Shown in pieces: positions 1-45,512 of a DNA stretch of 64,000 bases; position 1 is the stretch's first letter, and every line of letters starts with the position of its first letter. The notes beneath the pieces are model-generated. The model was not told where the DNA came from and did not search any database. It was given only the letters and a program-made list of their open reading frames with translations. Made by a program: the position numbers and the translations under genes. Origin of the DNA: Candidatus Altiarchaeales archaeon ex4484_96 (lineage in GTDB: Archaea > Altiarchaeota > Altiarchaeia > IMC4 > QMZM01); assembly GCA_002254405.1 (NCBI GenBank), contig NJDH01000003.1:5080-69079 (forward strand), written 5' to 3'.

Positions 1-949
1 CCTGGTTGATTTATTCAGCCCCACGTATTCATCTGGGCTCTCTTGGACCTGCGCGAGCGGGACCGAGAGTGACATAATTGATTTAATAAACTATACCCTT
101 TGCACGGTTAAGAATGTTCTTGTGGCGGTGGCGGGTTTAATCGCTACCATTGCTTTGATAGCCTCCGCTTTCATCTGGATTACCTCGGGCAGCCCGGAGG
201 CGAGGGCGTCTGCGAAATATGCCTCTATTGTGGCTATTATGGGCTTGATTGTGGCTATTGTTGGTCTGCAGTATCTTGGCACCGTATTTGGCGGGTCTGC
301 TTTGTCGTTTACCTGTGGTGTTGGAGTAACACCCTCTAATATTGTTTCTCTTGTTGAGAATGTTTTGTGCATAATCTATAATGTTCTTCGTTCGGTTGTG
401 GCTGTTGTTGCGGCGATTATGGTGTTGTTTGGTGGTTTCATGTTTATTAGCTCAGATAGCGACCGCGATAGGGCCCGGGGCAAGAACATGGTTGCTGCGG
501 CGATTATCGGCTTTATTATTGCCTTGATTGCGATACAGTTCATCCAGGCTGTTGTTACCCAAGCAGGCATGGGGGTATCAACGTGTGATGATGCCTACAA
601 GCTCTGTGTGGATGATTGTATCGACAACCACGGGGAGCCAAGCCCCATACCCGGCGGAGGCGGCGGCACGACGACCACCACAGCTACGACCACCACCACC
701 GGTGTTACAACCACAACGTTAAGTTGCATACAAGTTTGTGCCGCCGTCGGCTCCTGCGGTGACGCACCATATGCTTGTGGTCAAGCATCATATTGTATGG
801 TTGGTTCAGCGGGTTGTGACATATCTGTGGGTATTCCTGGGGCTTGTACAGGACCTACCTTCACGCTAACGCACACTCCAGCCGGCGATGCTTGGTGTGA
901 AGCACAATCCTATGCTGGTCCTGGCTATCAATGTTGTTGTTGTCCGTAA
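1..949 (+). CDS. Membrane protein, 5'-truncated by window edge (frame open to nt 2). It has two copies of the helix-loop-helix module (..AFIWITSGSPEARASAKY.. and ..FMFISSDSDRDRARGKNM..), a Thr-rich linker, and a Cys-rich C-terminal domain ending CCCCP
   Basis: Back-translation of frame 2 from nt 122 to nt 2 has no stop, so the ORF listed at 122 continues upstream. The hydrophobic helices and SDS-x-x-R-x-x-A-K loop match the repeats of the next gene. The poly-Thr tract is encoded around 652-716. The last 80 aa contain 12 Cys. Confidence 0.6.
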   Translation, partial: LVDLFSPTYSSGLSWTCASGTESDIIDLINYTLCTVKNVLVAVAGLIATIALIASAFIWITSGSPEARASAKYASIVAIMGLIVAIVGLQYLGTVFGGSALSFTCGVGVTPSNIVSLVENVLCIIYNVLRSVVAVVAAIMVLFGGFMFISSDSDRDRARGKNMVAAAIIGFIIALIAIQFIQAVVTQAGMGVSTCDDAYKLCVDDCIDNHGEPSPIPGGGGGTTTTTATTTTTGVTTTTLSCIQVCAAVGSCGDAPYACGQASYCMVGSAGCDISVGIPGACTGPTFTLTHTPAGDAWCEAQSYAGPGYQCCCCP

Positions 950-988
950 AATGAGAAACATTAAAAAATATGGAGTTGAAATATCAAT

Positions 989-3900
989 ATGAAGGTGTTT
1001 AATAGGGTGTTTAGGTGCCAGAAACTGTTATTGTTTCTCTTAGCATTCATGCTGTTTGGCTCCATGGTATACACTGTATCAGCCCAATCTGGGTTGGATG
1101 ACTGCTTAAAGACATGTAAGAGCAGTGCGGGCGGGGAGATAATTCATCTGGTGCGCTACACCATCTGCATCATCCTTAGGTTGGTTCAGTTGTTGTGTGT
1201 TATCGCATCTGTTCTGGCAATAACCCTAGCGGGTATTATGTGGATTTCATCCGACAGCAGCAGCCAGAGAGCCCTAGCCAAAAAAATAGTGATGTTCGCT
1301 TTGCTCGGGCTTATCGTGACGATGATAGTAATCCAGCTTGTGAATGCCTTTATATCCTTTGGGATTGATACAGGAAAAATATTTGTCATAGGATGTGAGA
1401 CCACCTGGGATACAACAATATATAACCCCATAAATACTGTGGCCTGCGTTCTTTATCGGGTGCTTCAGCTGGGTGCCATACTTTTAGCTGCTGTGGTCTT
1501 GACTCTGGCGGGCATCATGTGGGTTGGCTCAGACAGCCCGGAAGACAGGATACGCGCCAGAAACATCATGGTGTATGTAGTAATAGGTTTTCTGGTGGTG
1601 AATCTGGTGCTCTTGCTTCTGGGCTCTATCATTGATTCAGCAATACCCTACACATTCGATTGTAATTTGATGGCAAATGCCCCCCCGGGGATATCAGACA
1701 CCATCACCTATGTTGCCTGCATTGGATTAAGATTATTCCAGTATTCTGCGATATTGCTTGCAGTAGCGATAGTTGCCTTATCCGGGGTCCGCTTTATTTT
1801 ATCGGATAGCCCTGAGGAACGAATCAAGGCCCGCAACATGATAGCCTACACAATAGTGGGATTTCTGGTGGTTTTCACCGCAATAGCCTTTATTAACACG
1901 GCTCTCTCTGGTGTGGTGGGCACCCTGTCTTTGAACTCAATTGACTGTTCCATAACATCCTCTGCTCCAATTGACTTAGAAAATATCCGGATGACCTTGC
2001 ATAATGTTGCCTGCATTGTGATAGTTATTGTCTACTTCGTTGCTGCAGTACTCGCATCACTTGTCATCATTCTATCGGGAATATATTTTTATTCAAGCGA
2101 CGACCCGGTTGCGAGAAACCGGGCTAAAATCCTGGCAGCGCAGACGGTTGTCGGGTTGATTATTATACTTATCGCCATGAATCTCATATCAGCTCTCTTC
2201 AGCGGTGGGGGTATTACCTCAATTGAGGATGCTACTGCTGCGATATTCACCAACAACTGTGTTGCTCAAATAGGTGCGGGCACCTTCTCAGAGCTTCTAA
2301 AAGTTACAGACCCAATAAACACGGTGTTATGTGTTATTATTACACTCTTCCAGTCGCTTTCTGCTTTGATTCTTGTCTTGGTTATTATGGCTGCCGGATT
2401 CAGGTGGGCTATCTCCGACAGCCCCGAGGACAGGCTGCAGTCCAAGAGGATGGTGGTCTATGGTATAATAGGAATACTGGTTATACTGATTTCAACAAAC
2501 ATCATCTATGCCCTGATAAGCGCCGTCTCCGGGGGGGTGATAGACGACACATTCATCGCACCCGGGATGACTGGAACCCAATGCCAGATAGCTTCTGACG
2601 AGTTGGATGATGTTCTGGACATAGTCAAGGCGTTCTTGTGTATCATCCTTCTCGGGGGTTTCTTTTTGTCGGGCATAATCATAGCCTTGATTATAGTATA
2701 TGCCGGCTTGAGGTGGATTGCATCGGACAGTCCCCAAGACCGTAATGTTGCTAAGTGGATTATCATCAAGGCCTTGATTGGGTACATCCTGATTCAGGTA
2801 GCCTCGCAGCTTGTTATGGCCTTATCCACTGCATTGGTTTCAGGGGCTTTTGGTATGGGGGGCTTCTTTGACTTCCTGGGTTCCCTATTCGGTGAGCCCT
2901 ACATCATAACCTGTTTTTATTACCTGGGTGCTGGGGGTGGAACCGATGCATTCATTGGATTGGGCATCTTGTTCGCCCAGCTGTGGTTTATCTTCTGCTA
3001 TATTCTTCGGATGCTGCAGATTGTGGCAATAGCGGCTGCTGCCATAATCATTGTGGTGGCTGGCTTGAAGTGGATTGGCTCGGATTCAACAGAGCAAAGG
3101 TCTTATGTTAAGGCCCGGGTGCTTCATGCCCTGATAGGGTTGATTATTGTCATACTCGCCACATCCATAGTGGATGCCCTCTCCCTGATAGCTTTACTAT
3201 CTGATATGGTGGATGTTATACCTATTATCGGCCCGCTGATAAGCGGGATATTCGATTCTATTCTGGTAGACTTCTTCCACGTGGATGAACTATACACTAA
3301 CCTGTGTCCCGGGTGGGTTGACATACTTGGCATATTCTTCAATGAGCAGTTGAGGTTGCTTGCCTGTATCATCATCAGGATACTTCAGGGTGTTGCCGCC
3401 ATACTCGCCACGATAGTGATACTATTATCCGGCATAGCGTGGATGAGTTCTGAAAGCTATGAGGGGCGGACTAAGGCCCGGGACCGGTTGCTTCATGCCA
3501 TAATAGGTCTGTTGATTGTTATGGTAGCCTTGCAGTTGGTTAATGTTTTTGTTGTAACCGGCTTGGATTCCGCGCTCTCCTTGGACTGTAGCGGCACAGA
3601 CACCGGAGAGGTAGTTACACTGGCTAACACGCTGGGTTGTTTGATGGTTAAAATACTTGAGTCAATAGCTGGGATGATAGCGGCCATATTGATTATTGTT
3701 GCAGGATACCGGTGGATGACATCAGAAAGCCCCGAGCAAAGAGTCAAGCAGAGGAATAGAATCATCACCATACTCGTCGGGCTCACTGTCACCATAATAG
3801 CCCTGCAGCTGGTGCAGTTATTCGTCAGCGAACATGGCTTCATGCAGATTAACCCCGAGTGTATCCCCCTTTCCATAGCTCCTGTAGACTGCAGCAGCCC

Positions 3901-4168
3901 CGCAGACGAGCTGGAGGAGGTGGTATGCACCGCCCTCTATGTTGGTTGCCTCTTCATCAGGGTGCTTATGTATATCATCGCAGCGGTTGGGTTGTTGATG
4001 ATACTATGGGCCGGTATTACCTGGATTGTCTCCGATTCACCCGCGCAAAGGACTAGGGCGAGAAACATGCTCATCTCGGTTATTATAGCATTGATGGTTA
4101 TACTGCTGGCATTGGCTTTAATAAACTACCTGGTCACCGGGACGAGGATACTGAGCTTTTATTGCTGA
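989..4168 (+). CDS. 1059-aa signal-peptide membrane protein made of 10 tandem ~100-aa units. Each unit is a Cys-containing helix, a hydrophobic helix ending A-G-x-x-W, an S-D-S-P-E-x-R-x-x-A-[KR] loop, a hydrophobic helix, then a Cys-pair linker. Function unknown
   Basis: Ten W/F-x-x-S-[DE]-S motifs recur at ~100-aa spacing (ITLAGIMWISSDSSSQRALAKK, LTLAGIMWVGSDSPEDRIRARN ... ILWAGITWIVSDSPAQRTRARN). The N-terminal signal is LLLFLLAFMLFGSMVYTVSA. Confidence 0.7.
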   Translation: MKVFNRVFRCQKLLLFLLAFMLFGSMVYTVSAQSGLDDCLKTCKSSAGGEIIHLVRYTICIILRLVQLLCVIASVLAITLAGIMWISSDSSSQRALAKKIVMFALLGLIVTMIVIQLVNAFISFGIDTGKIFVIGCETTWDTTIYNPINTVACVLYRVLQLGAILLAAVVLTLAGIMWVGSDSPEDRIRARNIMVYVVIGFLVVNLVLLLLGSIIDSAIPYTFDCNLMANAPPGISDTITYVACIGLRLFQYSAILLAVAIVALSGVRFILSDSPEERIKARNMIAYTIVGFLVVFTAIAFINTALSGVVGTLSLNSIDCSITSSAPIDLENIRMTLHNVACIVIVIVYFVAAVLASLVIILSGIYFYSSDDPVARNRAKILAAQTVVGLIIILIAMNLISALFSGGGITSIEDATAAIFTNNCVAQIGAGTFSELLKVTDPINTVLCVIITLFQSLSALILVLVIMAAGFRWAISDSPEDRLQSKRMVVYGIIGILVILISTNIIYALISAVSGGVIDDTFIAPGMTGTQCQIASDELDDVLDIVKAFLCIILLGGFFLSGIIIALIIVYAGLRWIASDSPQDRNVAKWIIIKALIGYILIQVASQLVMALSTALVSGAFGMGGFFDFLGSLFGEPYIITCFYYLGAGGGTDAFIGLGILFAQLWFIFCYILRMLQIVAIAAAAIIIVVAGLKWIGSDSTEQRSYVKARVLHALIGLIIVILATSIVDALSLIALLSDMVDVIPIIGPLISGIFDSILVDFFHVDELYTNLCPGWVDILGIFFNEQLRLLACIIIRILQGVAAILATIVILLSGIAWMSSESYEGRTKARDRLLHAIIGLLIVMVALQLVNVFVVTGLDSALSLDCSGTDTGEVVTLANTLGCLMVKILESIAGMIAAILIIVAGYRWMTSESPEQRVKQRNRIITILVGLTVTIIALQLVQLFVSEHGFMQINPECIPLSIAPVDCSSPADELEEVVCTALYVGCLFIRVLMYIIAAVGLLMILWAGITWIVSDSPAQRTRARNMLISVIIALMVILLALALINYLVTGTRILSFYC

Positions 4169-4176
4169 TTTTTTTT
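4169..4176 (+). terminator. T8 tract immediately after the stop codon of the repeat protein. It sits in a convergent gene junction
   Basis: tgattttttttatcc at 4166-4180. Archaeal terminators are oligo-T tracts. Confidence 0.3.
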
Positions 4177-5983
4177 ATCCTATGGTGTATATTAGGAGAT
4201 AGATTAGTAGTATTATCGTTAAAAGGAAAACAGCCATCCCGATGGTTATCTGCTCTTCCCTGCTGAAATGCAAGGCCTTCTGTTGCTCTATTCTTTTTTC
4301 AAACGCGCCTGCTTTATCTGAGCCAGCCATCTCAAGTACTGTGACATAAAGCATGTCCCTGAAAACCCCGATCGCGTTCACCGGGTTCTTGGTGAACCAA
4401 AGAAAAATGTATGCTGTTCTGGAGGCTGTATCATCTATTTTTTTGGCATAATAGGTGAGGGGTTTCTCACAATACCACATAAATCCTTTCGCAAGTTTCC
4501 GGTAAAACCAGTCTGTGTCCAGTGATATGGTGTTTTTTCTTTTAAGCAGCGGGAGCATCACGAAAAAAGCAAGAGCTGAATAAAATAATAGCTCAAGCTG
4601 CTGCACGACGTGGTCTATTGTGTAGGCGTTGTATTCGATTTGAGCGGGCAGAATATTATACAACAGCTGCGGGTACACTCCCAGAAGTATGCAAAGGAAT
4701 GCTGCTCCTCCCATAGCATAAAGCATGTTTTTCGGGGGCTCTGTTGTTCTGATGCCTGAGTCTTTGGCGAAAAACACAAAATAAGGGAATTTTATCCCCG
4801 CATGAAGGAATACTCCTGCTGAGGCAAGCTGCAGCAGCATGAACACAGGTATCAGATGCTGGTTGGCTGCGGCTGATATTATCATGGATTTGGTTGTGAA
4901 ACCGCTGAATAGCGGGAACGCAGATATGGATGCCGCCCCTATGAGGCAGAATATTAATGTCAACGGCATGCTCTTGTATAGTCCCCCCAGCTCGGTGCAT
5001 TTTCTTTTGCCGGTCATGTATAATACTGCTCCAGCAGACATCCAAAGCAGCCCCTTGTATAATATGTGGCCGAACGCGTGTGCTGTGGAGCCGTTGAGTG
5101 AGAGCGCTGTTCCGATGCCTACGCCTGCGACCATAAACCCTACCTGGTTTATTATGCTGTAGGCGAGTATCCTGCGCATGTCGTTTTCCAGGATAGCGTA
5201 TATTATGCCGTATATTGACATTATTGTTCCCAGCCAGATTAGTATCTCCCACCCGGGGTATCCTCTTATGAGAACGTATACTGCTGTTTTGGTTGTGAAG
5301 GCGCTCAGGAACACGGCCCCGGTTACAGTGCCCTCGGGGTACGCATCAGATAACCATGCATGCAGCGGCGGAACAGCTGCATTAACAAGGAACCCAAGGA
5401 GTATAAGATTTGATGATAGCATTCCGCTGTCAGCCGCATCGAATGCGATTGAACCTGTTTGGGCTACCTGCATTATTATGCCAGCCAGCAGCACGGAGCC
5501 TCCGAATGCGTGCACCATGATGTATCTATATCCTGCCTTCCTTGAGGGTTCATCTCTTTTGTACCATATCAGCATAAGGGATGCGAGCGCCATAATCTCC
5601 CAGCAGATGAATAAAGTGAAGTAGTCTCCTGTGAAAACCACACCCAAAGCGCTTCCAACGTAAAGCAGTGCTGAAATATGCTGTCCGTCATCGTCCAGGT
5701 GCAGGGAGTATACCATCCCAAGTGTGGCCATTAACGTGAAAATGTATCCAAAGCACAGGCTTAGGTTGTCTACTCTGCCGAATATCAGCTCATAGCCCAG
5801 GAAATCAAATCCCCAGTGTGCTCCGTGTGGTAGAAACATTAGGCTGATGAAGGCTGCTGCGGGTATTAATACGAGAACTGCTTTCTTTAGCTTGCCTCCG
5901 AAAAGCGGGATGAGGGAAGCACCCAAAACTAAGATTATTCCTGGGTGGATTCCGCTGTTCAAAAGTGATGATAGCTCACTCAT
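4175..5983 (-). CDS. Mrp/Mbh antiporter large subunit. It is MrpA/NuoL-family and lacks the MrpB-like C-terminal extension
   Basis: 602 aa with about 14 TM segments. It is the NuoL/MrpA-like proton-pumping antiporter family, and it is the last gene of the mrp cluster. Confidence 0.8.
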   Translation of the reverse strand: MSELSSLLNSGIHPGIILVLGASLIPLFGGKLKKAVLVLIPAAAFISLMFLPHGAHWGFDFLGYELIFGRVDNLSLCFGYIFTLMATLGMVYSLHLDDDGQHISALLYVGSALGVVFTGDYFTLFICWEIMALASLMLIWYKRDEPSRKAGYRYIMVHAFGGSVLLAGIIMQVAQTGSIAFDAADSGMLSSNLILLGFLVNAAVPPLHAWLSDAYPEGTVTGAVFLSAFTTKTAVYVLIRGYPGWEILIWLGTIMSIYGIIYAILENDMRRILAYSIINQVGFMVAGVGIGTALSLNGSTAHAFGHILYKGLLWMSAGAVLYMTGKRKCTELGGLYKSMPLTLIFCLIGAASISAFPLFSGFTTKSMIISAAANQHLIPVFMLLQLASAGVFLHAGIKFPYFVFFAKDSGIRTTEPPKNMLYAMGGAAFLCILLGVYPQLLYNILPAQIEYNAYTIDHVVQQLELLFYSALAFFVMLPLLKRKNTISLDTDWFYRKLAKGFMWYCEKPLTYYAKKIDDTASRTAYIFLWFTKNPVNAIGVFRDMLYVTVLEMAGSDKAGAFEKRIEQQKALHFSREEQITIGMAVFLLTIILLIYLLIYTIG

Positions 5984-6203
5984 AGTATTCCTCCCTTTTC
6001 TGCAGCCATATGCCCAGTAACTTGGATACGAGTACTATTAGCACGCAGCTTAGGAAACCGTATATTGAGTAGAAACCGGGAAGTGCCTCCCATGAGACGA
6101 CGATATGGTGTTTGGGTATGAGCAGATCCGCTAGATAGATTAATACGAGAGATGCGATAAACATTTTTTTCAGGTTCCCGTATGTGAGTATTTTATTTAT
6201 CAT
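5976..6203 (-). CDS. Small membrane subunit associated with the Mrp cluster. The start is probably at the internal Met, giving 75 aa
   Basis: A hydrophobic 2-TM protein lying between the MrpD-like and MrpA-like genes. The ATG at 6201-6203 abuts the upstream stop at 6205. Confidence 0.4.
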   Translation of the reverse strand: MINKILTYGNLKKMFIASLVLIYLADLLIPKHHIVVSWEALPGFYSIYGFLSCVLIVLVSKLLGIWLQKREEYYE

Positions 6204-6204
6204 A

Positions 6205-7686
6205 TCATATGCCTCCGAATATGTTTTTTGCCATGAGCTCAACAAGCCCGTAGAAGAACCCGGGTGCATCAGGCCATAAACCGAGTATAATCGATATTGC
6301 TGCTGTCAGGGTTAAAGGTATGAGCATGAGTGCTGGTGCCTCATTCTTTTTTGTTTTGGTTTTTGCTTGCTTAAAGTAGGCACGGTATATTATCGGGAAA
6401 AAATAGGCGACGTTAAGCAGCGCGCTTGAGAGCAAAACCGCGACCAAGGGCAGCTGGTTTGCTTCAACAGAGCCTAAAAGCAGATACCATTTGCTGAGGT
6501 ATCCGCAGACGGGCGGGAAACCCGCCATACCAAAAGCAGCTATGCTGAAGGCGGCCATGGTGTAAGGCATGCTTTTGCCTATGCCGTCCAGCTCGCTTAT
6601 GTTTTTCTTTTTTGTTGCCACATATATTGCTCCGGCGCAGAAAAACAATGTTATCTTCATGAAGGCATGGTGTGCGATATGCATGACCCCGCCAAAAAGC
6701 CCTGCTGGGTTGACGTATGCCGCCCCAAGGATGATGTATGACAGCTGGCTTATGGTGGAGTAGGCTAGCATCTTTTTCAGGTTATCCTGCGTTAACGCAA
6801 ACATTGAGGCCACGAGTATTGTGTAGGCTACGAAATAGGCTAGTGGTATGCCCACGCCCAGCTTGGATACGAGTGTGGGTCCGAAGACGAAAAATATTGT
6901 TCTCACCACGCCGAATACGCCGGCTTTCACAACCGCTACCGCATGCAGTAGTGCGCTAACCGGTGTTGGGGCTACCATGGCTGATGGAAGCCAGGAGTGC
7001 AGTGGCATGAAAGCCGCCTTCACACCAAAGCCTACGATGTATGCTGCGAACAGTATCTGCAGGCCTAATACGCTGCCGTATCCGTATAGGAAACCCCCTG
7101 GTGTGAAACCCAGCGATCCTGTCAACGAGTATGTTGCTATTATGGCGAAAAGCAATACAACCCCTCCGCTGAGGGTGTAGACGAGGTATTTTCTGCCCGC
7201 TGATTTGGCTTTGGCGCTCTGTTTGTGTATGACAAGAGGGTATGTTATGAGGGTCAGTATCTCGTAGAACACGAAAAGCGTCAGCAGGTTGGCTGCGAAG
7301 GCAACCCCTATTGTTGAGGATAATGCTATTGCAAAGGATGCGAAGTATCGGGTCTGGGCGTGTTCGGCAAGTCCTCTCACGTACCCTATCGAATAAACTG
7401 ATGTCAGAATCCAAAGAAACGATGCGAGCACACCGAAAAGCAGGCCGAAGGCGTCAACCCTGAATGCGAAGGGTATCCCTGGCAGTATGTTGAATAGCTT
7501 ATAGTATATGTTGTTTCCCTCTAAAACAGCGGGTATCATTGATGCTATTATTATGAACTTTAATGTGGCTGCTATCATGGTCCATGTTTCGCGCAGGTTT
7601 CTTTTTTTATCGCTTAATAAAATCAGCACCGAGGCTGCCGCTGATATGAAAACAGCTAGCAGGGGCTTGATTGATATTACATCCAT
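6205..7686 (-). CDS. mrpD: Mrp antiporter subunit D-like (NuoM/N family), paralog 2
   Basis: 493 aa polytopic protein with NuoM/N-type conserved core segments (e.g. the ..WLPxAM..P.P.SAL.H.. region). Confidence 0.8.
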   Translation of the reverse strand: MDVISIKPLLAVFISAAASVLILLSDKKRNLRETWTMIAATLKFIIIASMIPAVLEGNNIYYKLFNILPGIPFAFRVDAFGLLFGVLASFLWILTSVYSIGYVRGLAEHAQTRYFASFAIALSSTIGVAFAANLLTLFVFYEILTLITYPLVIHKQSAKAKSAGRKYLVYTLSGGVVLLFAIIATYSLTGSLGFTPGGFLYGYGSVLGLQILFAAYIVGFGVKAAFMPLHSWLPSAMVAPTPVSALLHAVAVVKAGVFGVVRTIFFVFGPTLVSKLGVGIPLAYFVAYTILVASMFALTQDNLKKMLAYSTISQLSYIILGAAYVNPAGLFGGVMHIAHHAFMKITLFFCAGAIYVATKKKNISELDGIGKSMPYTMAAFSIAAFGMAGFPPVCGYLSKWYLLLGSVEANQLPLVAVLLSSALLNVAYFFPIIYRAYFKQAKTKTKKNEAPALMLIPLTLTAAISIILGLWPDAPGFFYGLVELMAKNIFGGI

Positions 7687-7696
7687 CTTTTTTTTT

Positions 7697-9163
7697 TTAT
7701 TGAATCAATGATATTGCCGTGTATTGCACATAGGGTAGTATCATGTAAACCAGTATCCCGAATACTATGCACGCTGCCGCTAATACCAGCATGGGTATTA
7801 GCATGCTTGCTGGAGCTATTGTTTTATCTATTTTATTTTGTTCCCCGAAGTATGCTTTCTCAAGAACCCTGAAGAAGTACCCGGCGTTTAATAGGCTGCT
7901 TGATAGTATCACGAGCGCGAAAATCCATCTGCCGGCTTCGATTGAGCCGAGAGCAAGATACCACTTGCTAAAAAAACCGCAAAGCGGCGGTACTCCGACC
8001 ATGGAAAGTGAGGCGATGGCGAAAAAAGCCATGGTGTAAGGCATTTTTTTCCCTAGGCCGTTGAAGTCCCCTATGTTTTTTATCCCTGTCTTGTATATGA
8101 TTGCTCCAACAGCCAGAAACAGGCACCCCTTCATCAGCGCATGGTTTAGTATGTGCAGGAGGCTTCCGGTCAACCCGGCTGTGTTAGCTAATCCTATGCC
8201 CAATACAATGTATCCTATCTGGCTTATGCTGCTGTAGGCGAGCATTCTTTTGATGTTTTTCTGGGCTATTGCGCTTATGGAGCCGGCTATTATGGCTATG
8301 GCGGCCGTCCATGAGAGTATTTCTCCGACAGGCATGGTTTCGATAAAAAAGTTTATAGTGAAAACATCATAGAGTAATCTTATCATCATGTATGCGCCTA
8401 CCTTGGACATGAGGGCGGCTATTAGGGCGCTCACCGTTGATGGGGCGTGGGTGTATGCGTTGGGCAGCCAGCTGTGAAGCGGGAAGAGCGCTATTTTTAT
8501 GCTTAAGCCTACGACTATCAGTACCGCGGCTGCGTGAACAACCCTTGAGCCGTAGAGTTCCTCAAGATGAAGCGACATGTCTGCCATGTTTAGTGTGCCT
8601 GTTACGGCATATAGGAATCCGATACCGATGAGGATGAATGAGGCCGCTATTGTTCCCAGTATAAGGTACTTGAAGCTTGCTGTAAGCGCCTGTCTTTTTT
8701 CTCCCAGGGCTATGAGAGCGTAAGCGGATAGCGAGCTTATCTCAAGGAAAACATACAGGTTGAATATGTCGCCTGTTACGACGATACCCAGCAATCCCGT
8801 CAGAAGCAGCATATGCAGCGTATAGTAGAATACAAGATTTTTGTTTAGTTCTTTTTCTATGCTTTTCTTGGAGTACACGCTTATGGATAATCCGATGAAG
8901 GCTATGATTGCAGCCATATAAGCTCCGAGGTTGTCTATGACATATTCTATGCCCCAGGGGGGCTCCCAGTTCCCCAGGTGATAGCTTAAAGTCCCGTGTA
9001 ATGTAACGTTTTTGATTAGCATTATTGCCAGGATGAAAACAGCCGAGGTTGCTATAAACGATAGGATATGGCAGTATCTTCTGCGTATTAAACCCACAAC
9101 AGGCATTATGAATGAGCTCATCAGGGGTATTATGACTATGAGTACCGGGAGGTTTGTGTTCAT
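7697..9163 (-). CDS. mrpD: Mrp antiporter subunit D-like (NuoM/N family), paralog 1
   Basis: 488 aa. Contains HSWLPNAYTHAPSTVSALIAALMSKVG and is homologous to the adjacent paralog. Confidence 0.8.
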   Translation of the reverse strand: MNTNLPVLIVIIPLMSSFIMPVVGLIRRRYCHILSFIATSAVFILAIMLIKNVTLHGTLSYHLGNWEPPWGIEYVIDNLGAYMAAIIAFIGLSISVYSKKSIEKELNKNLVFYYTLHMLLLTGLLGIVVTGDIFNLYVFLEISSLSAYALIALGEKRQALTASFKYLILGTIAASFILIGIGFLYAVTGTLNMADMSLHLEELYGSRVVHAAAVLIVVGLSIKIALFPLHSWLPNAYTHAPSTVSALIAALMSKVGAYMMIRLLYDVFTINFFIETMPVGEILSWTAAIAIIAGSISAIAQKNIKRMLAYSSISQIGYIVLGIGLANTAGLTGSLLHILNHALMKGCLFLAVGAIIYKTGIKNIGDFNGLGKKMPYTMAFFAIASLSMVGVPPLCGFFSKWYLALGSIEAGRWIFALVILSSSLLNAGYFFRVLEKAYFGEQNKIDKTIAPASMLIPMLVLAAACIVFGILVYMILPYVQYTAISLIQ

Positions 9164-9525
9164 TGGTTTGCCTCCATTATTTTGTCTTCGTCCAGTGTCC
9201 TGTATTCCTGGTATATCTTGATTATTATTGTGAGAGCTACTGCTGTGGTGCTAACCGAAACCACGATGGCTGTCAGAATCAGCACTTGGGGGAGTGGGTT
9301 TACGTATCCTGTCGCGTGCTCGACCAGTATGGGGGCCGAAAGCTCCTTGATGTATCCCGCGGATATGTAAAACAGGAAGATGGCTGTCTGCATTATGTTC
9401 ATGCCGATAATCTTTTTTATCAGGTTTTTTTTGGATGTCATGGCATAGAATCCTATGACCACCAATAAAACGAAAACCCAGTAATTGTATTTACCAATTA
9501 TCCATTCCAGCTCCAATTCTCTCAC
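9160..9525 (-). CDS. mrpC: Mrp antiporter subunit C (NuoK-like)
   Basis: 121 aa with 3 TM segments. Its position and the NuoK/MnhC-like sequence support the call. Confidence 0.75.
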   Translation of the reverse strand: MRELELEWIIGKYNYWVFVLLVVIGFYAMTSKKNLIKKIIGMNIMQTAIFLFYISAGYIKELSAPILVEHATGYVNPLPQVLILTAIVVSVSTTAVALTIIIKIYQEYRTLDEDKIMEANQ

Positions 9526-9946
9526 CCGCTAAGTATATGAAAAGTATTATCGTCGCCGACATAACGGTTAATCCAATCCCCAGTTCCACCCCGAGTATTG
9601 AGAGTGCCGTTGTCTCGTGGGCGTCAACAGGCAGGGGCAAGCTATCGTATTGCAGGTATTTGCCCCCGGAAAGCATATCCATTAAACCAATCCCTGAATA
9701 TATCAATACTCCTAGGCTTATGAGGATTATGAGGTGCTTTTTTGATACCCGTTTTTTTGCTTTAGACAGGCCGTATACTATGCCATATAATATCATGCTT
9801 GTTCCAAGAATCACCCCGCCCTGGAATCCCCCGCCGGGTGATGTTTCCCCGTGCACTATTACGTAGATGCCGAATAATTGGATGAATGGAATCATTATCC
9901 TTGATATTGTTCTGGCTACCAGAGATTCCACTTCTTTTTCACCCAT
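9491..9946 (-). CDS. MrpB C-terminal portion (MbhF-like)
   Basis: PFIQLFGIYVIVHGETSPGGGFQGGVILG matches the conserved MrpB/MnhB C-terminal motif. Confidence 0.7.
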   Translation of the reverse strand: MGEKEVESLVARTISRIMIPFIQLFGIYVIVHGETSPGGGFQGGVILGTSMILYGIVYGLSKAKKRVSKKHLIILISLGVLIYSGIGLMDMLSGGKYLQYDSLPLPVDAHETTALSILGVELGIGLTVMSATIILFIYLAGERIGAGMDNW

Positions 9947-10223
9947 TATTCCACCTCATAAACAATATCATCACCGCTATCCCTGCCGTGAATATGACTG
10001 TTGTCTCCCCTAGGGTATCGTATCCCCTGTAGTTGGCTAGTATTGCTGTTACAATGTTTGGGGCTCCGCCTTCTGTTTCTGAGTTATTTATGTATCTTGG
10101 TATTACGTGTTTGTTTGCTGGGTTATCCGGGTCACCGAAGCTGGGCATGTCCTCTACCACGTATATCAGGATGGCGCTCACGGCCAAAAGCGACATCAGC
10201 GAAGCGTATTTGATTTTAGTCAT
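9939..10223 (-). CDS. MrpB core portion (MbhE-like)
   Basis: NIVTAILANYRGYDTLGETTVIFTAGIAV matches the MnhB signature. Confidence 0.7.
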   Translation of the reverse strand: MTKIKYASLMSLLAVSAILIYVVEDMPSFGDPDNPANKHVIPRYINNSETEGGAPNIVTAILANYRGYDTLGETTVIFTAGIAVMILFMRWNNG

Positions 10224-10471
10224 TTCTCTTCCATCACCATTGTTTTAGATAATGCTGCTATGAAAAGGAAGGTCGTCACCCCGGCTCCTACCGCGGCTTC
10301 GGTGAACGCGACATCAGGGGAGTTGAGCACCACCCAAGTTAATGCCATGATGAGGCTGTATCCGGACAGCAGTATTGTGGCGCTTAATAGGTTTTTCATC
10401 CTTATGGCGGCATAGGATATTAATACCAGAAAAACCAGCAGTATGAAATCTATTTCTATCGGAGAGTTCAT
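10220..10471 (-). CDS. DUF4040/MrpB N-terminal-like small membrane protein (MbhD-like)
   Basis: DVAFTEAAVGAGVTTFLF motif, with position between mrpG and mrpB as in Mbh clusters. Confidence 0.6.
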   Translation of the reverse strand: MNSPIEIDFILLVFLVLISYAAIRMKNLLSATILLSGYSLIMALTWVVLNSPDVAFTEAAVGAGVTTFLFIAALSKTMVMEEK

Positions 10472-10785
10472 CCGTCCACCTCCCTTACCCAGGGCTTAAC
10501 TCCTTTGTTGTATACTGCCCTGGATATCGTATGTGTTGCCACCGGGGATGTGAGCATTATGAATATCATCATTATGAGAAGCTTTGCTGTTGTGGTTGAT
10601 ATGCCAGAATATAATCCAAGCCCGAGCAATATTAGGCTTGCTCCTAGGGTGTCTCCTTTCCCGGTCGCATGAAGTCGGGTGTAGAGGTCTGGGAATCTAA
10701 GCAATCCTATGGTGGCGGTTATGAAAAAAAACAACCCCCCGGCAAGAAACAATACCGTCACCCCATCCATAATACAATCCATCAT
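10468..10785 (-). CDS. mrpG: Mrp antiporter subunit G
   Basis: RLHATGKGDTLGASLILLGL motif typical of MnhG. Confidence 0.75.
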   Translation of the reverse strand: MMDCIMDGVTVLFLAGGLFFFITATIGLLRFPDLYTRLHATGKGDTLGASLILLGLGLYSGISTTTAKLLIMMIFIMLTSPVATHTISRAVYNKGVKPWVREVDG

Positions 10786-10788
10786 TTC

Positions 10789-11052
10789 CTATAATCCCCC
10801 GAACTCTATTTGTTTAGATAGTGCCACCGTTAATATGAAATTAAATAGCGCGTATACTATTGCGACATCGACAAAATAGAGGCTGTCAAACAGGTAGCCT
10901 ATGAGCACCACTATTATGATTGTTTTAGTGCCTACTACGTTTATGGCTATCGCCCTGTCCCATGGTTCGGGTCCTACTATCGCCCGGTAGAGGCAGAGCA
11001 GGGTGGTGGCCAGCAGGCATAATGTTGTGTACTCGAATATTTCTTGCATCAT
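10789..11052 (-). CDS. mrpF: Mrp antiporter subunit F
   Basis: 87-aa 3-TM protein in the expected position and of the expected size for MnhF. Confidence 0.6.
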   Translation of the reverse strand: MMQEIFEYTTLCLLATTLLCLYRAIVGPEPWDRAIAINVVGTKTIIIVVLIGYLFDSLYFVDVAIVYALFNFILTVALSKQIEFGGL

Positions 11053-11540
11053 GTTTCGTCCTCAAATATCTCCACCAATCTGGTTCTCATCGTGCCATCT
11101 AATAGCTCCTGCGCCGATTTATCCGATAGTGAGTGGACAAAATACCTGTTTTTCTTTACGTCTATGGTTATTGTCCCGGGTGTGAGTGTTATTGAGTTGG
11201 CGAGTGTTGTTTTCCCTATATCCCCTTTAAGCTGCGTATCGAATTCTATAATCTTGGGGTTGATGGGCATGCTGGGATGTAAAACCCGATACGCTACATC
11301 CAGGTTGGCGAGTATTATGCTGTATCCCAGGTAAATCAGGTATTTGAGGGCTTGGATTATTTTTTTTAGTGAGGTGTTTGTTTTATCTTCTGCTATCAGT
11401 AAATCGCTGGAGTAGTACGCTACGAGCAGACTACCGATTACTCCGGCGCTGATATGCAGTAAGTCGATTCTTGCGGACAGCAGCATCCAGAATAACACCA
11501 TGATTGCGAATGTTAGAGTAAAGGGCTTTATCTTTACCAT
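11049..11540 (-). CDS. mrpE: Mrp antiporter subunit E
   Basis: 163 aa with N-terminal TM segments. It is the first gene of the cluster, as in Mbh/Mrp (E-F-G-B-C-D order). Confidence 0.6.
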   Translation of the reverse strand: MVKIKPFTLTFAIMVLFWMLLSARIDLLHISAGVIGSLLVAYYSSDLLIAEDKTNTSLKKIIQALKYLIYLGYSIILANLDVAYRVLHPSMPINPKIIEFDTQLKGDIGKTTLANSITLTPGTITIDVKKNRYFVHSLSDKSAQELLDGTMRTRLVEIFEDET

Positions 11541-38026: not shown

Positions 38027-39232
38027 ATGAAGCCTTGTTGGAATAAGCTTGTGGCGTCGTTGATTGTGCTGGCTTTATTTTTTAATATGGTGCAGCTTGT
38101 TTCCTCTGATGCTCACAGCCATCCTAAATTAGACCCTACCTCCTTGTTAGGCAGTTTAGAGAAAACCAAGACCGGTTCTGTTGTTGCAGAGCTTTTCACT
38201 AAATCAAATGTTATGCTGGCGCAGCGCGCGTTTTATATTTTTGTTGTTGGATATATCATCAACACGATTGCTGAAGACATTGAAAATAATTTTTCCAAGC
38301 ATATCCTATTAAATCCAGATTTGAAAAACCCGGCGGCATTAAACCTGCTTCGTTACTTTATCGGGTTGCTTTATCCCGTGTATATTCTTGCGATTGTTGT
38401 CACAGGGTTTTATATTATTTTTATCCCTGGCTCTCCTGTCGGCAGGTTCAGGGCGAAGTCGTTGCTGGGTAAGCTTATCATTAGTATGGTTTTGGTTTCA
38501 ATATCCCCTGAGCTGATGGGGTGGCTGCTTTTGTTGACTGAGGAATCCACCCGGGAGATAATAGGGGATGATGAAAACATCAGGGCTTATGTTAGAATAG
38601 CTGCTAATGAGTTTTCCTCTATGATAAAGACCATCCGCAACCTGATTATTTTAGGTAATGCACCGAATCTTTTATGGGCTGGGGCAGGAACTCTAAGCAG
38701 CGTTTTAGGTATATTGAAAGGAAGCGCCCATGGTTTTCTGGGCAACGCAGGGCATTTTATGCACGCTATTGAGATTTTTGAGATAGAGACTGTGTGGACT
38801 GTCCCCCTTCTTATGCTGATGGTTCTTGTGATAATCGGGGTCTATGGTCTGCTTGCCATAAGGTATTTTATGGTATTGCTTTGGGCTATGCTGCTGCCTT
38901 TCACTATTTTTCTCTCATCTTTCGAGTTCACGCGCGGTTTCGGGAAGACCATGCTTGAGCAGACCCTCTTATGGAGCAGCCTGCAGGTTTTTTATGGCAT
39001 CACTATAGTGGTTATTGCCGTGGGTATCACGATTGTTCCATCAAGCATGTATGAGTCCTATGGTATAGGCATCTATAAGGGTGATGTCATAGGATTAGGC
39101 TCGGTTATGGAGTCATTGGATATAGCTGGAGAGCCTTTTTTTGTCAGCATATTCACATGGTCCAGCATGTTTATGTTGTTTTTGGGACCTATTTTGATGT
39201 TCACTTTTTTCCAGAAACTACTTCCACCGTAA
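38027..39232 (+). CDS. Polytopic membrane protein, paralog 1 of 5. It has a signal peptide, a ~90-aa ectodomain, a hairpin module (TGFYIIFIPGSPVGRFRAKSLLGKLIISMVLVSISP) and a C-terminal multi-TM domain
   Basis: Shared motifs with the paralogs: PxYxxAxxxTGFYxxF..SP.GR.KAKS.L.KL..S.VL.S.SP, and later RYF.VLLWA.L.PF..F.SSF.FTR..G..MLEQT.LWSS.Q. Confidence 0.65.
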   Translation: MKPCWNKLVASLIVLALFFNMVQLVSSDAHSHPKLDPTSLLGSLEKTKTGSVVAELFTKSNVMLAQRAFYIFVVGYIINTIAEDIENNFSKHILLNPDLKNPAALNLLRYFIGLLYPVYILAIVVTGFYIIFIPGSPVGRFRAKSLLGKLIISMVLVSISPELMGWLLLLTEESTREIIGDDENIRAYVRIAANEFSSMIKTIRNLIILGNAPNLLWAGAGTLSSVLGILKGSAHGFLGNAGHFMHAIEIFEIETVWTVPLLMLMVLVIIGVYGLLAIRYFMVLLWAMLLPFTIFLSSFEFTRGFGKTMLEQTLLWSSLQVFYGITIVVIAVGITIVPSSMYESYGIGIYKGDVIGLGSVMESLDIAGEPFFVSIFTWSSMFMLFLGPILMFTFFQKLLPP

Positions 39233-39233
39233 T

Positions 39234-40181
39234 ATGAGAAACAAAAGTTTTATTGTTGTTGCCATGGTACTGGCTTTGATGTTTGTTCCCTTAGTGCATC
39301 ATGTAGAGGCATCACATGATTCTCCCGGGCAGGCGTTCGCTAAAAATGTTCCAGACACCTTAACCTTTCTCCTAAAAAGAGTTTTATACTATACTGTGGC
39401 GTTTAATTACGCCAGCCGCGGTCTTGATGTTCTATCATCCAGCCTGGAGGAATTTATCCTCATGAATCCCTCACCCCAGCACCCGGTTGTACTGGATATT
39501 ATCCGGTTTTTTGTCTCGCTTCTGCAACCCTTTTATGTGCTTGCTATTTCTATAACAGGGTTTTATCTTATCTTTGTCTCATCATCTCCTGCAGGAAGAA
39601 ACAAGGCTAAAAGCACATTAATTAAGCTGGTTTTCTCTCTCGTCATCATATCCCTGACTCCTCAGGTGATGACCATAGCATTATATACTACCGAAAATAT
39701 CACCAGCTCTATATTAGGCCAGGCTGACATATCCTACTATACCTATGCGTTAAATGAGGCGATGAACACATTACAGTGGATTCATCTGTGGGCTTCATTG
39801 ATTAACATTGAGATGGGTTATTATTCTTTTCTGCCGCCTTTTTTCATAGTATGGGGTACTTATGTGATGCTTACCTTAAGGTTTATCGCTGTTTTATTGT
39901 GGATTGTTATGTTTCCGCTTGCTGTTTTCCTTTATTCATTTACTTTCACGAAAAACATCGGGAGAAACATGCTTGAGCAAACAATTTTATGGAGCAGCAT
40001 GCAAATATTCAATGCTTTATTGGTGGCTGTGGCAGCAATAGGCATGATATCCAAGGAACCTGGGTTTATGCACATACAAGCCCTTATTTCCGGAATAGAT
40101 ATTATTTTGATTGCGGGTGTGTTTAGTTTGGTTGTTGCTCCCGCTTTGATGTTGATTTGGTTCAGGAATTTTTTGCCTTAA
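39234..40181 (+). CDS. Polytopic membrane protein, paralog 2 of 5 (hairpin SSSPAGRNKAKSTLIKLVFSLVIISLTP)
   Basis: Same motif set as paralog 1. The start is 2 nt after the previous stop. Confidence 0.65.
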   Translation: MRNKSFIVVAMVLALMFVPLVHHVEASHDSPGQAFAKNVPDTLTFLLKRVLYYTVAFNYASRGLDVLSSSLEEFILMNPSPQHPVVLDIIRFFVSLLQPFYVLAISITGFYLIFVSSSPAGRNKAKSTLIKLVFSLVIISLTPQVMTIALYTTENITSSILGQADISYYTYALNEAMNTLQWIHLWASLINIEMGYYSFLPPFFIVWGTYVMLTLRFIAVLLWIVMFPLAVFLYSFTFTKNIGRNMLEQTILWSSMQIFNALLVAVAAIGMISKEPGFMHIQALISGIDIILIAGVFSLVVAPALMLIWFRNFLP

Positions 40182-40185
40182 AAAA

Positions 40186-41367
40186 ATGAAAAAAAACAAA
40201 ATAAGGGTTCGAAAGATTGCAATGGTTTTGCTCATCATTATTGTTTTATCGTTGAATGTTAACTCCCAGTTTTTAACGGATTTATGGAGCAACACAAAAA
40301 AACACTTCAAGGGTGAAGGATTACTTAACCCTAAATCGTTTTTCGGTGAGAGCATCGGGTACTTCATCAGGATGATTCTGGTGGTGAAGGTGATATACGG
40401 GGGATTTATCCCAAAATATGCATTGTCCTTCCCGCATAATTTTTATGAGGCTATAATGTCTAATCCATCCCCTTATGACCCTGGCATATTTAATCTGCTG
40501 GTGTTCATGATTAAAATACTTCAACCGGTTTATATCATGCTTATTCTGGCTGCCGGGTTTTATGTGCTTTTCATGCAGTCGTCTCTTTCATCACGCTCTA
40601 AGGCGAAGAATCTGCTTATCAGACTTTTGATTTCGATGCTTGTTTTATCGCTTTCCATCCCGATAATAAATCTTTTGCTGGGTTTATCAGAGGGTGTTAC
40701 TGAATCGGTTTTTGGCCTTATTAGCAGGCAGGAGATAAAGCATACATTGGGCGGTGCAGTCCATAATCTTTTTTGGGTTTATGCTTTGACAGCAGTTCCT
40801 CACACAGACATAGGACTACCTTATTTAACCCTTCTTTTTGCGATGGCGTTTCTCCCATATATAGTTCTTGGTTTGCGTTATATACTAATAACCATGTTCA
40901 TGGTCTTGTTCCCTCTTGGAGTGTTTTTCTACACCCTCCCCTGGCTTAAGGGGATAGGCAAAAAGATACTAGAACAGCTTATTGTGTGGATCTTTTTGCA
41001 GATTTTTATTGCATTGATTATTGTGGTGTTCGTCGGTATCGGCTTGACCATAGAAGATCATGTAGTCTATAACGCCAAGATATCCTTATCTAATCTTAGG
41101 GGCATGTATGATGTTACCGGAATGCTTGCTTTAACCCCAACAGGTATTGATGTCGGTAAATATTTTGGTTTCTGGGGTGTGCTGCTTGGTGGAGTAATCG
41201 GCGCGGGTGTGGGGGTTGCCCCGATAGAGTTTCTCCTGTGCCACTTTTATGAGGCCCTGCCGGCAACCATAAACATCGTGTATTTCGTACTGGGGGCTAC
41301 AATATATGCAATGCTCGCTATTTTCCCTCTCATATGGTCCCATCACCTCCATGATTTCCTACCATGA
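40186..41367 (+). CDS. Polytopic membrane protein, paralog 3 of 5 (hairpin QSSLSSRSKAKNLLIRLLISMLVLSLSIP), with a Gly-rich extra C-terminal TM domain
   Basis: Same motif set. Ends with GVLLGGVIGAGVGVAPIEF. Confidence 0.65.
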   Translation: MKKNKIRVRKIAMVLLIIIVLSLNVNSQFLTDLWSNTKKHFKGEGLLNPKSFFGESIGYFIRMILVVKVIYGGFIPKYALSFPHNFYEAIMSNPSPYDPGIFNLLVFMIKILQPVYIMLILAAGFYVLFMQSSLSSRSKAKNLLIRLLISMLVLSLSIPIINLLLGLSEGVTESVFGLISRQEIKHTLGGAVHNLFWVYALTAVPHTDIGLPYLTLLFAMAFLPYIVLGLRYILITMFMVLFPLGVFFYTLPWLKGIGKKILEQLIVWIFLQIFIALIIVVFVGIGLTIEDHVVYNAKISLSNLRGMYDVTGMLALTPTGIDVGKYFGFWGVLLGGVIGAGVGVAPIEFLLCHFYEALPATINIVYFVLGATIYAMLAIFPLIWSHHLHDFLP

Positions 41368-42440
41368 AAAACAAAACAAAAACCCTGGTATTGGCTTTGA
41401 TTTTGGTTTATTTAGCGGGGGCGCTCTCGTTGGATGTGTTAGCCACTAAAATGAAGGGCGCTTATTCCAAGGCACCCTGGGGTGAGGGATTCATTAATGT
41501 CTTTACCTCGGAAGCGGCTAAGTTTTCCAGGAAAGGTCTTATAATCTGGTCTGGTAGTCTGGTTCATGATTTTTATCTCAGCATTTACCCTAACATGCCC
41601 ACATTAATAACAGCTAATCCCCCTATGTGGAGTATCAAGCATTTCATGGGTTTCTTCATCAATCTCATAGAGCCGTTTTATATTGTGGCTATTATGTTAA
41701 CGGGGTTTTATATTATTTTTGTCTCACAGTCTCCTGTAAACCGGGCTAAGGCAAAAAAATGGTTTGGGAAGCTTATAATAGGGTTGGTTCTCATCTCCAT
41801 ATCACCCCTCCTCGTTGAAGTACTGTATTTTATCTCCAGCAACCTCTCAAAGCAGATTATGAATCTCGCTGACGTGGAGCTGGCCTTGGGTTCGTTTAAG
41901 GCAGCCTCGCAGGGTTTATGGGATATGTTCAAATATCTGACAATGATACACAGATACGGTGGCGTGGAGATATTCCTCATTGATACCGTGGTAATGATGG
42001 CATTGTATCTTATCATGTTTATGAGATATATTATGGCTGGTTTATTGGCTGTGCTTTTGCCTGCAGCATTGTTTTTTTATTCATGGGATTTAACCAGAAA
42101 CGTGGGGAAGATGATGTTTGAGCAATTGATTATATGGATTTTCATGCAGATGGGTTGGGCTGTTGGGTTGGTTATTGTCTCTGTTGCAGTGGTTACGTTA
42201 CCGTCTGTTGCTCCTAGTATGCCGATAGAGTTCTTGTATATCACATCGCTTCTTTTTATGATGGCTGTTCCGTTCATGATACTTGGTGTTATGAACTGGA
42301 TGGGTTTGTCGATTTTCATGTTCGAGGTTGTGCAGGCCGCTCCCTTAAGCAGCGGTGCTGTGTTGTTTGGTGAAACCACGATAGAGAGGAAACCCGTGGT
42401 TGAGGAGGAGGTGATTGTTAAGCCACCGGAGGATTACTGA
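41364..42440 (+). CDS. Polytopic membrane protein, paralog 4 of 5 (hairpin SQSPVNRAKAKKWFGKLIIGLVLISISP)
   Basis: Same motif set. 4-nt overlap with the upstream gene. Confidence 0.65.
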   Translation: MKNKTKTLVLALILVYLAGALSLDVLATKMKGAYSKAPWGEGFINVFTSEAAKFSRKGLIIWSGSLVHDFYLSIYPNMPTLITANPPMWSIKHFMGFFINLIEPFYIVAIMLTGFYIIFVSQSPVNRAKAKKWFGKLIIGLVLISISPLLVEVLYFISSNLSKQIMNLADVELALGSFKAASQGLWDMFKYLTMIHRYGGVEIFLIDTVVMMALYLIMFMRYIMAGLLAVLLPAALFFYSWDLTRNVGKMMFEQLIIWIFMQMGWAVGLVIVSVAVVTLPSVAPSMPIEFLYITSLLFMMAVPFMILGVMNWMGLSIFMFEVVQAAPLSSGAVLFGETTIERKPVVEEEVIVKPPEDY

Positions 42441-42445
42441 ATAAA

Positions 42446-45338: not shown

Positions 45339-45512
45339 TCAAAAAACAATCACCATAGGCGTTGGGGACACAGCTTTCTTTGACGCAAGCCAGTCTATCG
45401 GAACCGGAAGTTTCAGTTGGGATTATGCTGACGGGAACACAGCAACGGGAGCATCCCCCTCACACAGTTTTTCCTCTGAGGGAACCTATACTGTGGCCTT
45501 GACTTTCACCGG
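45216..45512 (+). repeat. Two perfect 104-bp direct repeats (45216-45319 and 45409-45512) inside the PKD-coding regions, in different reading frames
   Basis: agtttcagttgggattatgctgacgggaacacagcaacgggagcatccccctcacacagtttttcctctgagggaacctatactgtggccttgactttcaccgg is present twice. Confidence 0.85.

Follow-up and report, generated by a model that had tools for sequence, protein, structure and literature searches.

A 1059-aa protein of ten tandem VirB2/TrbC-type hairpin units encoded by one gene of Candidatus Altiarchaeales archaeon ex4484_96

VirB2-type pilins are regarded as small single subunits, which are extracted singly from the membrane by a type IV secretion system (T4SS). Known conjugative pilins are single units of ~100-150 amino acids (aa) that carry their own leader and are encoded in T4SS operons. 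Here, we describe a gene of Candidatus Altiarchaeales archaeon ex4484_96, located in a 64,000-nucleotide (nt) stretch of contig NJDH01000003.1 (positions 5,080 to 69,079 of assembly GCA_002254405.1; hereafter the window), whose product is one Sec-targeted polytopic membrane protein of 1059 aa composed of ten diverged VirB2/TrbC-type hairpins. The ten units share one signal peptide, and the gene is chromosomal, lying among housekeeping genes with no T4SS gene nearby. As neither the single-unit form with its own leader nor a T4SS neighborhood is found, the protein represents an architectural variant rather than “a VirB2”.

Arrays of pilin genes are known from the Candidate Phyla Radiation (CPR)/Patescibacteria, in which 441 arrays of 2-11 separate VirB2-like genes with ~25% identity within an array have been described (PMC12102498). 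In Ca. Southlakia epibionticum, a six-gene pilin array is essential (PMC10633639, PMC12857230). The 1059-aa protein resembles these arrays in that many diverged pilin modules of the same Pfam family are placed side by side, with a pairwise identity of 22-41% between its ten units. The CPR arrays consist of separate genes with their own signal peptides, often near virB4, whereas the modules described here are archaeal, are joined in one open reading frame (ORF), carry a Cys pair per unit and have no virB4 nearby. By this comparison, the protein corresponds to a CPR/Patescibacteria tandem pilin gene array joined into a single polypeptide.

Among archaea, CedA1 and TedC are VirB2-like helix-turn-helix pilins which form 5-start pili with bound lipid, and the signal peptide of TedC is cleavable (PMC9905601). 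Unlike the 1059-aa protein, they are single small proteins encoded together with CedA/CedB (VirB6-/VirB4-like) genes, and there is no demonstrated relation between the two beyond a common superfamily. The NCBIfam family NF045849 (Mbov_0395-family pilin-like conjugal transfer protein), associated with integrative and conjugative elements of Mycoplasma, comprises single-unit proteins of mobile elements in wall-less bacteria. Nine of the ten units match this family, which is a domain-level similarity and not an equivalence.

The ORF is complete, and its translation matches, with 100% identity, an entry that NCBI lists as “hypothetical protein” for Candidatus Altiarchaeales archaeon ex4484_96. Its parts are listed below, with window coordinates, together with results from profile hidden Markov models (HMMs), the structure predictor AlphaFold2 (AF2) and its confidence measure, the predicted local distance difference test (pLDDT).

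989-4168, + strand: complete gene from its ATG; signal peptide and ten T4SS_pilin/VirB2-like hairpin units, final residue Cys (HMM, motif scan)
989-1087, + strand: predicted Sec-type signal peptide, aa 1-33 (sequence inspection; AF2 helix 3-24)
1133-1384, + strand: pilin unit 1, aa 49-132 (unit HMM, independent E-value 7e-28; PF18895 alone 18.1 bits, below cut-off)
1412-1663, + strand: pilin unit 2, aa 142-225 (PF18895 30.3 bits; core pLDDT of the AF2 unit model >90)
1685-1936, + strand: pilin unit 3, aa 233-316 (PF18895 33.2 bits)
1979-2230, + strand: pilin unit 4, aa 331-414 (unit HMM, independent E-value 3e-27; PF18895 alone 19.7 bits, below cut-off)
2297-2548, + strand: pilin unit 5, aa 437-520 (PF18895 36.8 bits and PF04956 36.1 bits, both above cut-off)
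2606-2857, + strand: pilin unit 6, aa 540-623 (PF18895 30.6 bits)
2963-3214, + strand: pilin unit 7, aa 659-742 (PF18895 31.2 bits, PF04956 25.9 bits)
3332-3583, + strand: pilin unit 8, aa 782-865 (PF18895 35.2 bits, PF04956 26.6 bits)
3605-3856, + strand: pilin unit 9, aa 873-956 (PF18895 32.5 bits, PF04956 22.7 bits)
3914-4165, + strand: pilin unit 10, aa 976-1059, ending at the C-terminal Cys (PF18895 40.7 bits)

An earlier note on this stretch, made from the sequence alone, had read the ORF as a single protein of ten tandem pilin-like units, and this reading was confirmed. A regular-expression search found exactly ten copies of the motif A/S-G-x-x-W/F-x-x-S-D/E-S/D (aa 81, 174, 265, 363, 469, 572, 691, 814, 905, and 1008), and an HMM built from an alignment of the ten ~84-aa units and two units of the upstream ORF recovered ten domains with independent E-values of 5e-26 to 5e-31. 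The hallmarks named for the unit, i.e., the helix-1 Cys, A-G-x-x-W, the S-D-S-P-E-x-R-x-x-A-K/R loop, a second hydrophobic helix and a linker Cys, are all visible in the alignment, where three positions are invariant (the helix-1 Cys, a Ser and the loop Arg) and G34, S42, and G59 nearly so.

The VirB2/TrbC-type nature suggested for the units also agrees with curated profiles. The whole protein scored 191 bits against T4SS_pilin PF18895 (E = 3.2e-57, cut-off 26.6) over ten stretches, 70.3 bits against TrbC/VirB2 PF04956 (E = 1.6e-19, cut-off 27.9) over four stretches, and 108.6 bits against the 80-position model NF045849 (cut-off 40) over nine stretches. Scanned singly, eight of the ten units exceeded the PF18895 cut-off, and unit 5 that of PF04956 as well. 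These matches support the assignment of the units as VirB2/TrbC-type pilin modules.

By inspection, the N-terminus (MKVFNRVFRCQKLLLFLLAFMLFGSMVYTVSA, followed by QS) resembles a Sec signal peptide, with a basic n-region (K2, R6, R9, and K12), a hydrophobic core (L13-V27) and an end at TVSA before QS; a conserved CxxxC (C39 and C43) lies downstream of it. NCBI places the start of the gene 20 codons further downstream (window 1049), giving a protein of 1039 aa in which the basic n-region of the signal peptide is lost. The ATG at 989, which has a GGAG 13 nt on its 5′ side, restores the n-region and agrees with the ortholog P0002.

Tandem Repeats Finder detected no DNA-level repeat in window positions 1-4300. 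Together with the low identity between units, this indicates that the duplication is ancient and apparent at the protein level, and that it is not an assembly artifact. Orthologs with 74%, 72%, and 45% identity have ten units each, and these and one with ~40% identity, all from independent samples, retain the full reading frame and the unit order. A mis-assembled repeat or a non-coding ORF is refuted by this conservation, as well as being at odds with the missing DNA-level repeat, and we consider it hardly credible. When compared with the 45% ortholog (P0004), each unit is closest to the unit in the same position (42-67% identity on the diagonal and 20-43% off it), and the hairpins (52% identical) are better conserved than the linkers (29%). 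P0004 additionally has an N-terminal ectodomain of ~470 aa with PKD domains. The linkers of the 1059-aa protein are 17-38 aa long with one Cys as their only common element, and those between units 6 and 7 and between units 7 and 8 are hydrophobic, partly helical and recognizable in distant 7-unit relatives. The positional orthology and the contrast between hairpins and linkers indicate that unit order and identity are under selection, while the linkers serve as tethers, except for 6-7 and 7-8. A search of genome contigs with the whole protein returned only ex4484_2 again.

An AF2 model of unit 2 with its flanks, based on a 32-row alignment of paralogous and orthologous units, contains two helices (14-52 and 56-87) separated by a three-residue turn, with a core pLDDT of 94-97. 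In the full-length AF2 model, ten two-helix hairpins are seen, and extra short helices occur only in linkers 6-7 and 7-8. The Cys-bearing signal-like helix and the AGxxW helix, which the earlier note had treated as separate, form one continuous helix of ~39 residues in these models. Each unit thus has two helices and the protein ~20 membrane helices plus one signal peptide, which replaces the alternative of ~30 transmembrane (TM) helices that had also been raised.

The ten loops contain 31 K/R in 150 residues, and the N-terminal segment and nine linkers together contain 8 K/R and 43 D/E in 368 residues. According to the positive-inside rule, positively charged segments of membrane proteins remain in the cytoplasm. 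The concentration of K/R in the loops therefore places the loops, by prediction, in the cytoplasm and the linkers and both hairpin ends outside, which would be the pre-assembly topology known for VirB2-type pilins. The likeness of the units to VirB2/TrbC/TraA (PF04956 and PF18895) thus extends from the HMM matches to a two-helix hairpin of ~70-85 aa with a short basic loop, and, for VirB2, to the A-G-x-x-W end of helix 1 and the predicted termini-out, loop-in arrangement.

Of the 26 Cys residues, 24 are conserved in the orthologs, and all of these lie on the predicted external side. They comprise the CxxxC before unit 1, a Cys at the start of helix 1 and a tail Cys after helix 2 in each unit, and an extra pair before unit 10; the C-terminal residue is a Cys in the 1059-aa protein and in its orthologs. 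The linker Cys pair that had been noted for each unit was therefore only partly retained: such an extra pair exists solely in the linker before unit 10, and elsewhere each linker has one conserved Cys, which pairs numerically with the helix-1 Cys of its own unit. In relatives of the Cys type (see below), both the helix-1 and the tail Cys are present in 255 of 266 units and in 59 of 64 last units, and precisely this pair of Cys occurs in five single-unit relatives that have a signal peptide (e.g., P0126, ...DIFC...TTKNVC-end). Because the Cys counts pair within units, a disulfide between helix-1 Cys and tail Cys, closing the hairpin of each unit, is the most likely arrangement.

VirB2, like TrbC, is a cyclized pilin. 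In the RP4 pilus account, TrbC is described as a cyclic pilin whose ends are tied by a peptide bond (PMC13434634). The units resemble it in having tied hairpin ends, here by the likely disulfide, and the disulfide-closed hairpin may thus be a functional analog of the head-to-tail cyclization of TrbC/VirB2.

A second gene of the same kind precedes the 10-unit gene.

2-949, + strand: 3′ part of the upstream paralog, cut by the window edge (HMM); the ORF ends 39 nt before the 10-unit ATG

Owing to this short spacing, the two genes are probably co-transcribed. Inside the window, the paralog is represented by the last two of its five pilin units, a linker rich in Thr and a C-terminal, Cys-rich ectodomain with CCCCP at its end. 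Full-length orthologs at two other loci have five units behind a signal peptide (L001 8044-9906, 620 aa; L003 644-2455, 603 aa). The pair of 5-unit and 10-unit genes is kept in three genomes despite different flanking genes. In a fourth, syntenic genome (GCA_975902405.1, locus L006), the pair is a single ORF of 1775 aa with 6 + 11 units, which has neither the signal peptide of the second gene nor the ectodomain of the first. This fusion argues that both proteins work in one assembly. On the 5′ side of the gene pair, a small conserved membrane protein of 123-135 aa with no recorded Pfam match is encoded at three orthologous loci (L002 3983-4390, L003 175-546, and L001 7793-8017).

The unit HMM was searched against 1.84 billion representative proteins and gave 15,956 matches at E ≤1e-3. 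The best 150 were analyzed, including the query's own entry (P0001), and the following counts refer to the 149 others; as matches were ranked by summed score, multi-unit proteins are favored in this sample. Two to 17 units are carried by 130 of the 149. The relatives fall into a Cys type (n = 57), with 1, 2, 4, 5, 6, 7, 10, 11, or 17 units, and a Cys-free type (n = 92), with 2-8 units. Named members of the former are Candidatus Altiarchaeales, and those of the latter are Candidatus Andersenbacteria (one 6-unit relative) or unclassified bacteria; every one bears the annotation hypothetical. In 44 relatives, the protein extends past the array at the N- or C-terminus, and PKD was annotated, by Pfam or precomputed annotation, in both of the extension-bearing relatives that were checked (P0004 and P0023). 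A word-indexed protein search with the unit profile gave one match.

Fused pilin genes also occur in groups. A related archaeal genome contains four adjacent multi-pilin genes with 7, 4, 6, and 7 units (L004/L005 40-13356), each with a terminal extension, in one of which PKD is annotated. Small DUF5678 genes and a weak retropepsin-like gene (Asp_protease_2; 3686-4090) are scattered among them, and no ATPase was found within 10 kb of the cluster. In two bacterial contigs (L007 and L008), one of them from an unclassified bacterium, fused 7-unit and 4-unit genes stand in the middle of rows of single T4SS_pilin genes. The literature search found no paper on pilin modules fused in one polypeptide, in keeping with the initial view that a ten-fold fusion lies outside described systems; the fusion is not unique, however, given the number of multi-unit proteins among these best matches. 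Fused pilin chains are thus a widespread and apparently undescribed architecture of uncultivated archaea and bacteria, of which the ten units described here, and 17 in a relative, form the extreme end. An arrangement in multiples of five, as stacked pentameric layers (C5 pili), was also considered and is ruled out by the 6 + 11 ortholog and by relatives with 4, 6, 7, 8, and 11 units.

The genes around the 10-unit gene in the window are archaeal housekeeping genes, comprising an Mrp antiporter operon, A/V-type ATPase subunits, AspRS, IleRS and CDP-archaeol synthase. The antiporter operon adjoins it directly.

4175-11540, − strand: complete-looking operon of an Mrp-type cation/proton antiporter (MnhB, MnhE and three Proton_antipo_M subunits), convergently oriented relative to the pilin gene and lying 6 nt from its stop

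The same Mrp gene is found downstream of the fused 17-unit ortholog in L006. Neither a VirB4/HerA-like ATPase nor Ced/Ted genes were among the scanned window ORFs, and tRNA and Rfam scans of the window returned nothing. The adjoining Mrp genes, together with twenty hydrophobic helices and internal repeats, could suggest a polytopic transporter or channel whose function is unrelated to pilins. This is very improbable, as all repeats match pilin HMMs, no significant match to a transporter family was obtained (best per-unit E = 0.0035, below cut-off), and the helices are without the charged or polar residues that transporters typically have within the membrane. Moreover, the Mrp genes are convergent on the opposite strand, and flanking genes change between genomes whereas the pilin pair stays.

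The reading that we favor, with no more than even confidence, is that the intact chain and its 5-unit paralog constitute a pre-ordered subunit block, either in a heteromeric VirB2-type filament or tube or in the membrane base of such a structure. The chain would be left uncut, instead of being processed into ten pilins, and would act together with the paralog encoded 39 nt upstream as a block of adjoining subunits in a preset order. The covalent linkers would determine the order and neighborhood of the subunits, and the terminal ectodomains of the paralog and of the orthologs would be exposed on the surface. In Ced/Ted and conjugative pili, both pilin termini are on the outer surface, and the subunits are arranged in 5-start strands (PMC9905601); external tethers of 17-38 residues could therefore bridge neighboring subunits.

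Several observations weigh against this reading. No VirB4, VirB6, or other T4SS Pfam match was found among the scanned ORFs of the 64-kb window, and T4SS genes were likewise not found in the flanks of ≤10 kb of the orthologous loci L001, L003, L004/L005, and L006, so a pilus-assembly machine is not demonstrated. Unit numbers vary (5 or 6 in the first protein, 10 or 11 in the second, and 4, 6, and 7 elsewhere), so that a fixed geometric stoichiometry is not apparent. Confidence in the full-length AF2 model is low (pLDDT 63, predicted template modeling score 0.49), and the disulfide pairing is derived from Cys counts, with the unit tail poorly predicted (AF2 pLDDT ~50). A Foldseek search of the unit model against the PDB gave no match with E <1, the hairpin fold being indistinguishable from thousands of others, and the unit profile found no solved pilin among PDB sequences, only two chance matches to RNase P protein; whether this library includes CedA1/TedC chains was not verified.

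The missing T4SS ATPase or channel gene near the archaeal loci examined would fit a rather unlikely alternative, in which the 20-helix bundle stays in the membrane as a scaffold that organizes or anchors surface proteins and ectodomains, independently of a T4SS or a pilus. Terminal extensions beyond the array in many relatives point in the same direction, as do pilin hairpins of the window that are fused to large ectodomains (a 965-aa protein, 30266-33163) or to further TM helices. The module itself, however, belongs by HMM to the pilus-forming VirB2/TrbC family, and the fused genes in the two bacterial contigs are part of single-pilin arrays like the CPR arrays which are thought to build a pilus (PMC12857230). 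Ten positionally conserved, disulfide-closed units would also be superfluous for a simple anchor.

The linkers bear on whether the chain remains intact. The earlier note had considered that it could in principle be processed into about ten subunits. As such a polyprotein precursor, it would be inserted by Sec, and cleavage in the external linkers would then release about ten different mature pilins that co-polymerize. Between a tail Cys and the helix-1 Cys that follows it lie 17-28 aa, about as many as in the mature N-terminus of single-unit relatives, so that the chain has the appearance of mature pilins strung together; every helix 2 is oriented in-to-out like a signal peptide, often with small residues at its end, and the weak retropepsin-like gene (L004 3686-4090) occurs in one related multi-pilin cluster. 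However, the nine linkers share no sequence motif, and the residues that follow the tail Cys are unrelated (ETT, NLM, SIT, VAQ, QIA, FYY, PGW, SGT, and IPL). The linkers contain no internal signal peptides or hydrophobic leader, and they are as variable as described above relative to P0004, with a single Cys in common. No conserved protease gene lies beside the locus, and two of the linkers are long, hydrophobic, partly helical and conserved, like structured elements. Relatives also fuse their arrays to large ectodomains; such terminal extensions, like the 17-unit fusion, suggest selection for covalent linkage. Processing into about ten subunits is therefore quite improbable, and we retain the intact chain as part of the favored reading.

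A more far-reaching proposal, which we regard as doubtful, is that chains of 5, 10, or 17 units are fixed-order segments that assemble, with no adjacent T4SS ATPase, into a short tube or surface conduit whose length and composition are set. Several chains would perhaps run next to one another, following the 5-start strands that typify conjugative pili.

Pilin-like hairpins are also encoded elsewhere in the window. Five tandem paralogs (38027-43942, + strand; 401, 315, 393, 358, and 498 aa), 29-35% identical to the first of them, each have a signal-like N-terminus, one pilin-like hairpin (F-Y-x-I-F-x-x-S-S-P-x-G-R-x-K-A-K) and 3-4 further TM helices, and they share an invariant R...P...F...G...Q...W...Q pattern. 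Their PF18895 matches are below threshold (E = 6e-5 to 0.013), the unit HMM gives independent E-values of 3e-7 to 4e-3, and no other family is matched. They could represent a novel polytopic partner of the pilin proteins, possibly VirB6-like. Directly 5′ of them, a very Cys-rich secreted protein of 1598 aa (33229-38025, + strand) ends in a C-terminal TM anchor and matches no Pfam family significantly. The 965-aa surface protein (30266-33163, − strand) starts with a signal peptide and one T4SS_pilin-like hairpin (aa ~42-111) and continues with Gly/Asp spacers, a pair of PKD domains and a transglutaminase-like core. In this case, a pilin hairpin serves to anchor a large ectodomain in the membrane or in a filament. 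A 204-aa protein (45493-46107, + strand) has one pilin-like hairpin flanked on both sides by Cys-rich segments (PF18895 E = 1e-4, NF045849 E = 1e-5) and adjoins a 262-aa Cys-rich secreted protein with a PKD domain (44550-45338, + strand). An NCBIfam match to the CPR pilus protein PamR was discarded, since it comes from the PKD/Ig domain of another gene and Pam pili are Ig-fold donor-strand pili of an unrelated family.

Patescibacteria have recently been noticed to carry multi-gene pilin arrays, essential in Ca. Southlakia, for which there is so far no explanation. Fused chains of 2-17 units, kept unit by unit in Altiarchaeales and occurring in a CPR bacterium as well, imply that neighbors in an array are physical neighbors in the resulting structure. 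They also show that a tether at the external ends of the pilin hairpin is tolerated or favored by selection. From this follow testable predictions on how heteromeric T4SS-type pili are built, and structural work gains a natural tandem-subunit construct. The locus extends VirB2-like modules to a chromosomal, apparently T4SS-independent setting in an archaeal lineage outside the Ced/Ted systems, and the Cys pair of each unit suggests a disulfide analog of pilin cyclization. Should the chains indeed form a fixed-order tube, this would be a new class of archaeal envelope structure and would offer a rationale for the multi-pilin arrays of CPR bacteria, in which the order of the array would be the order of neighbors in the filament.

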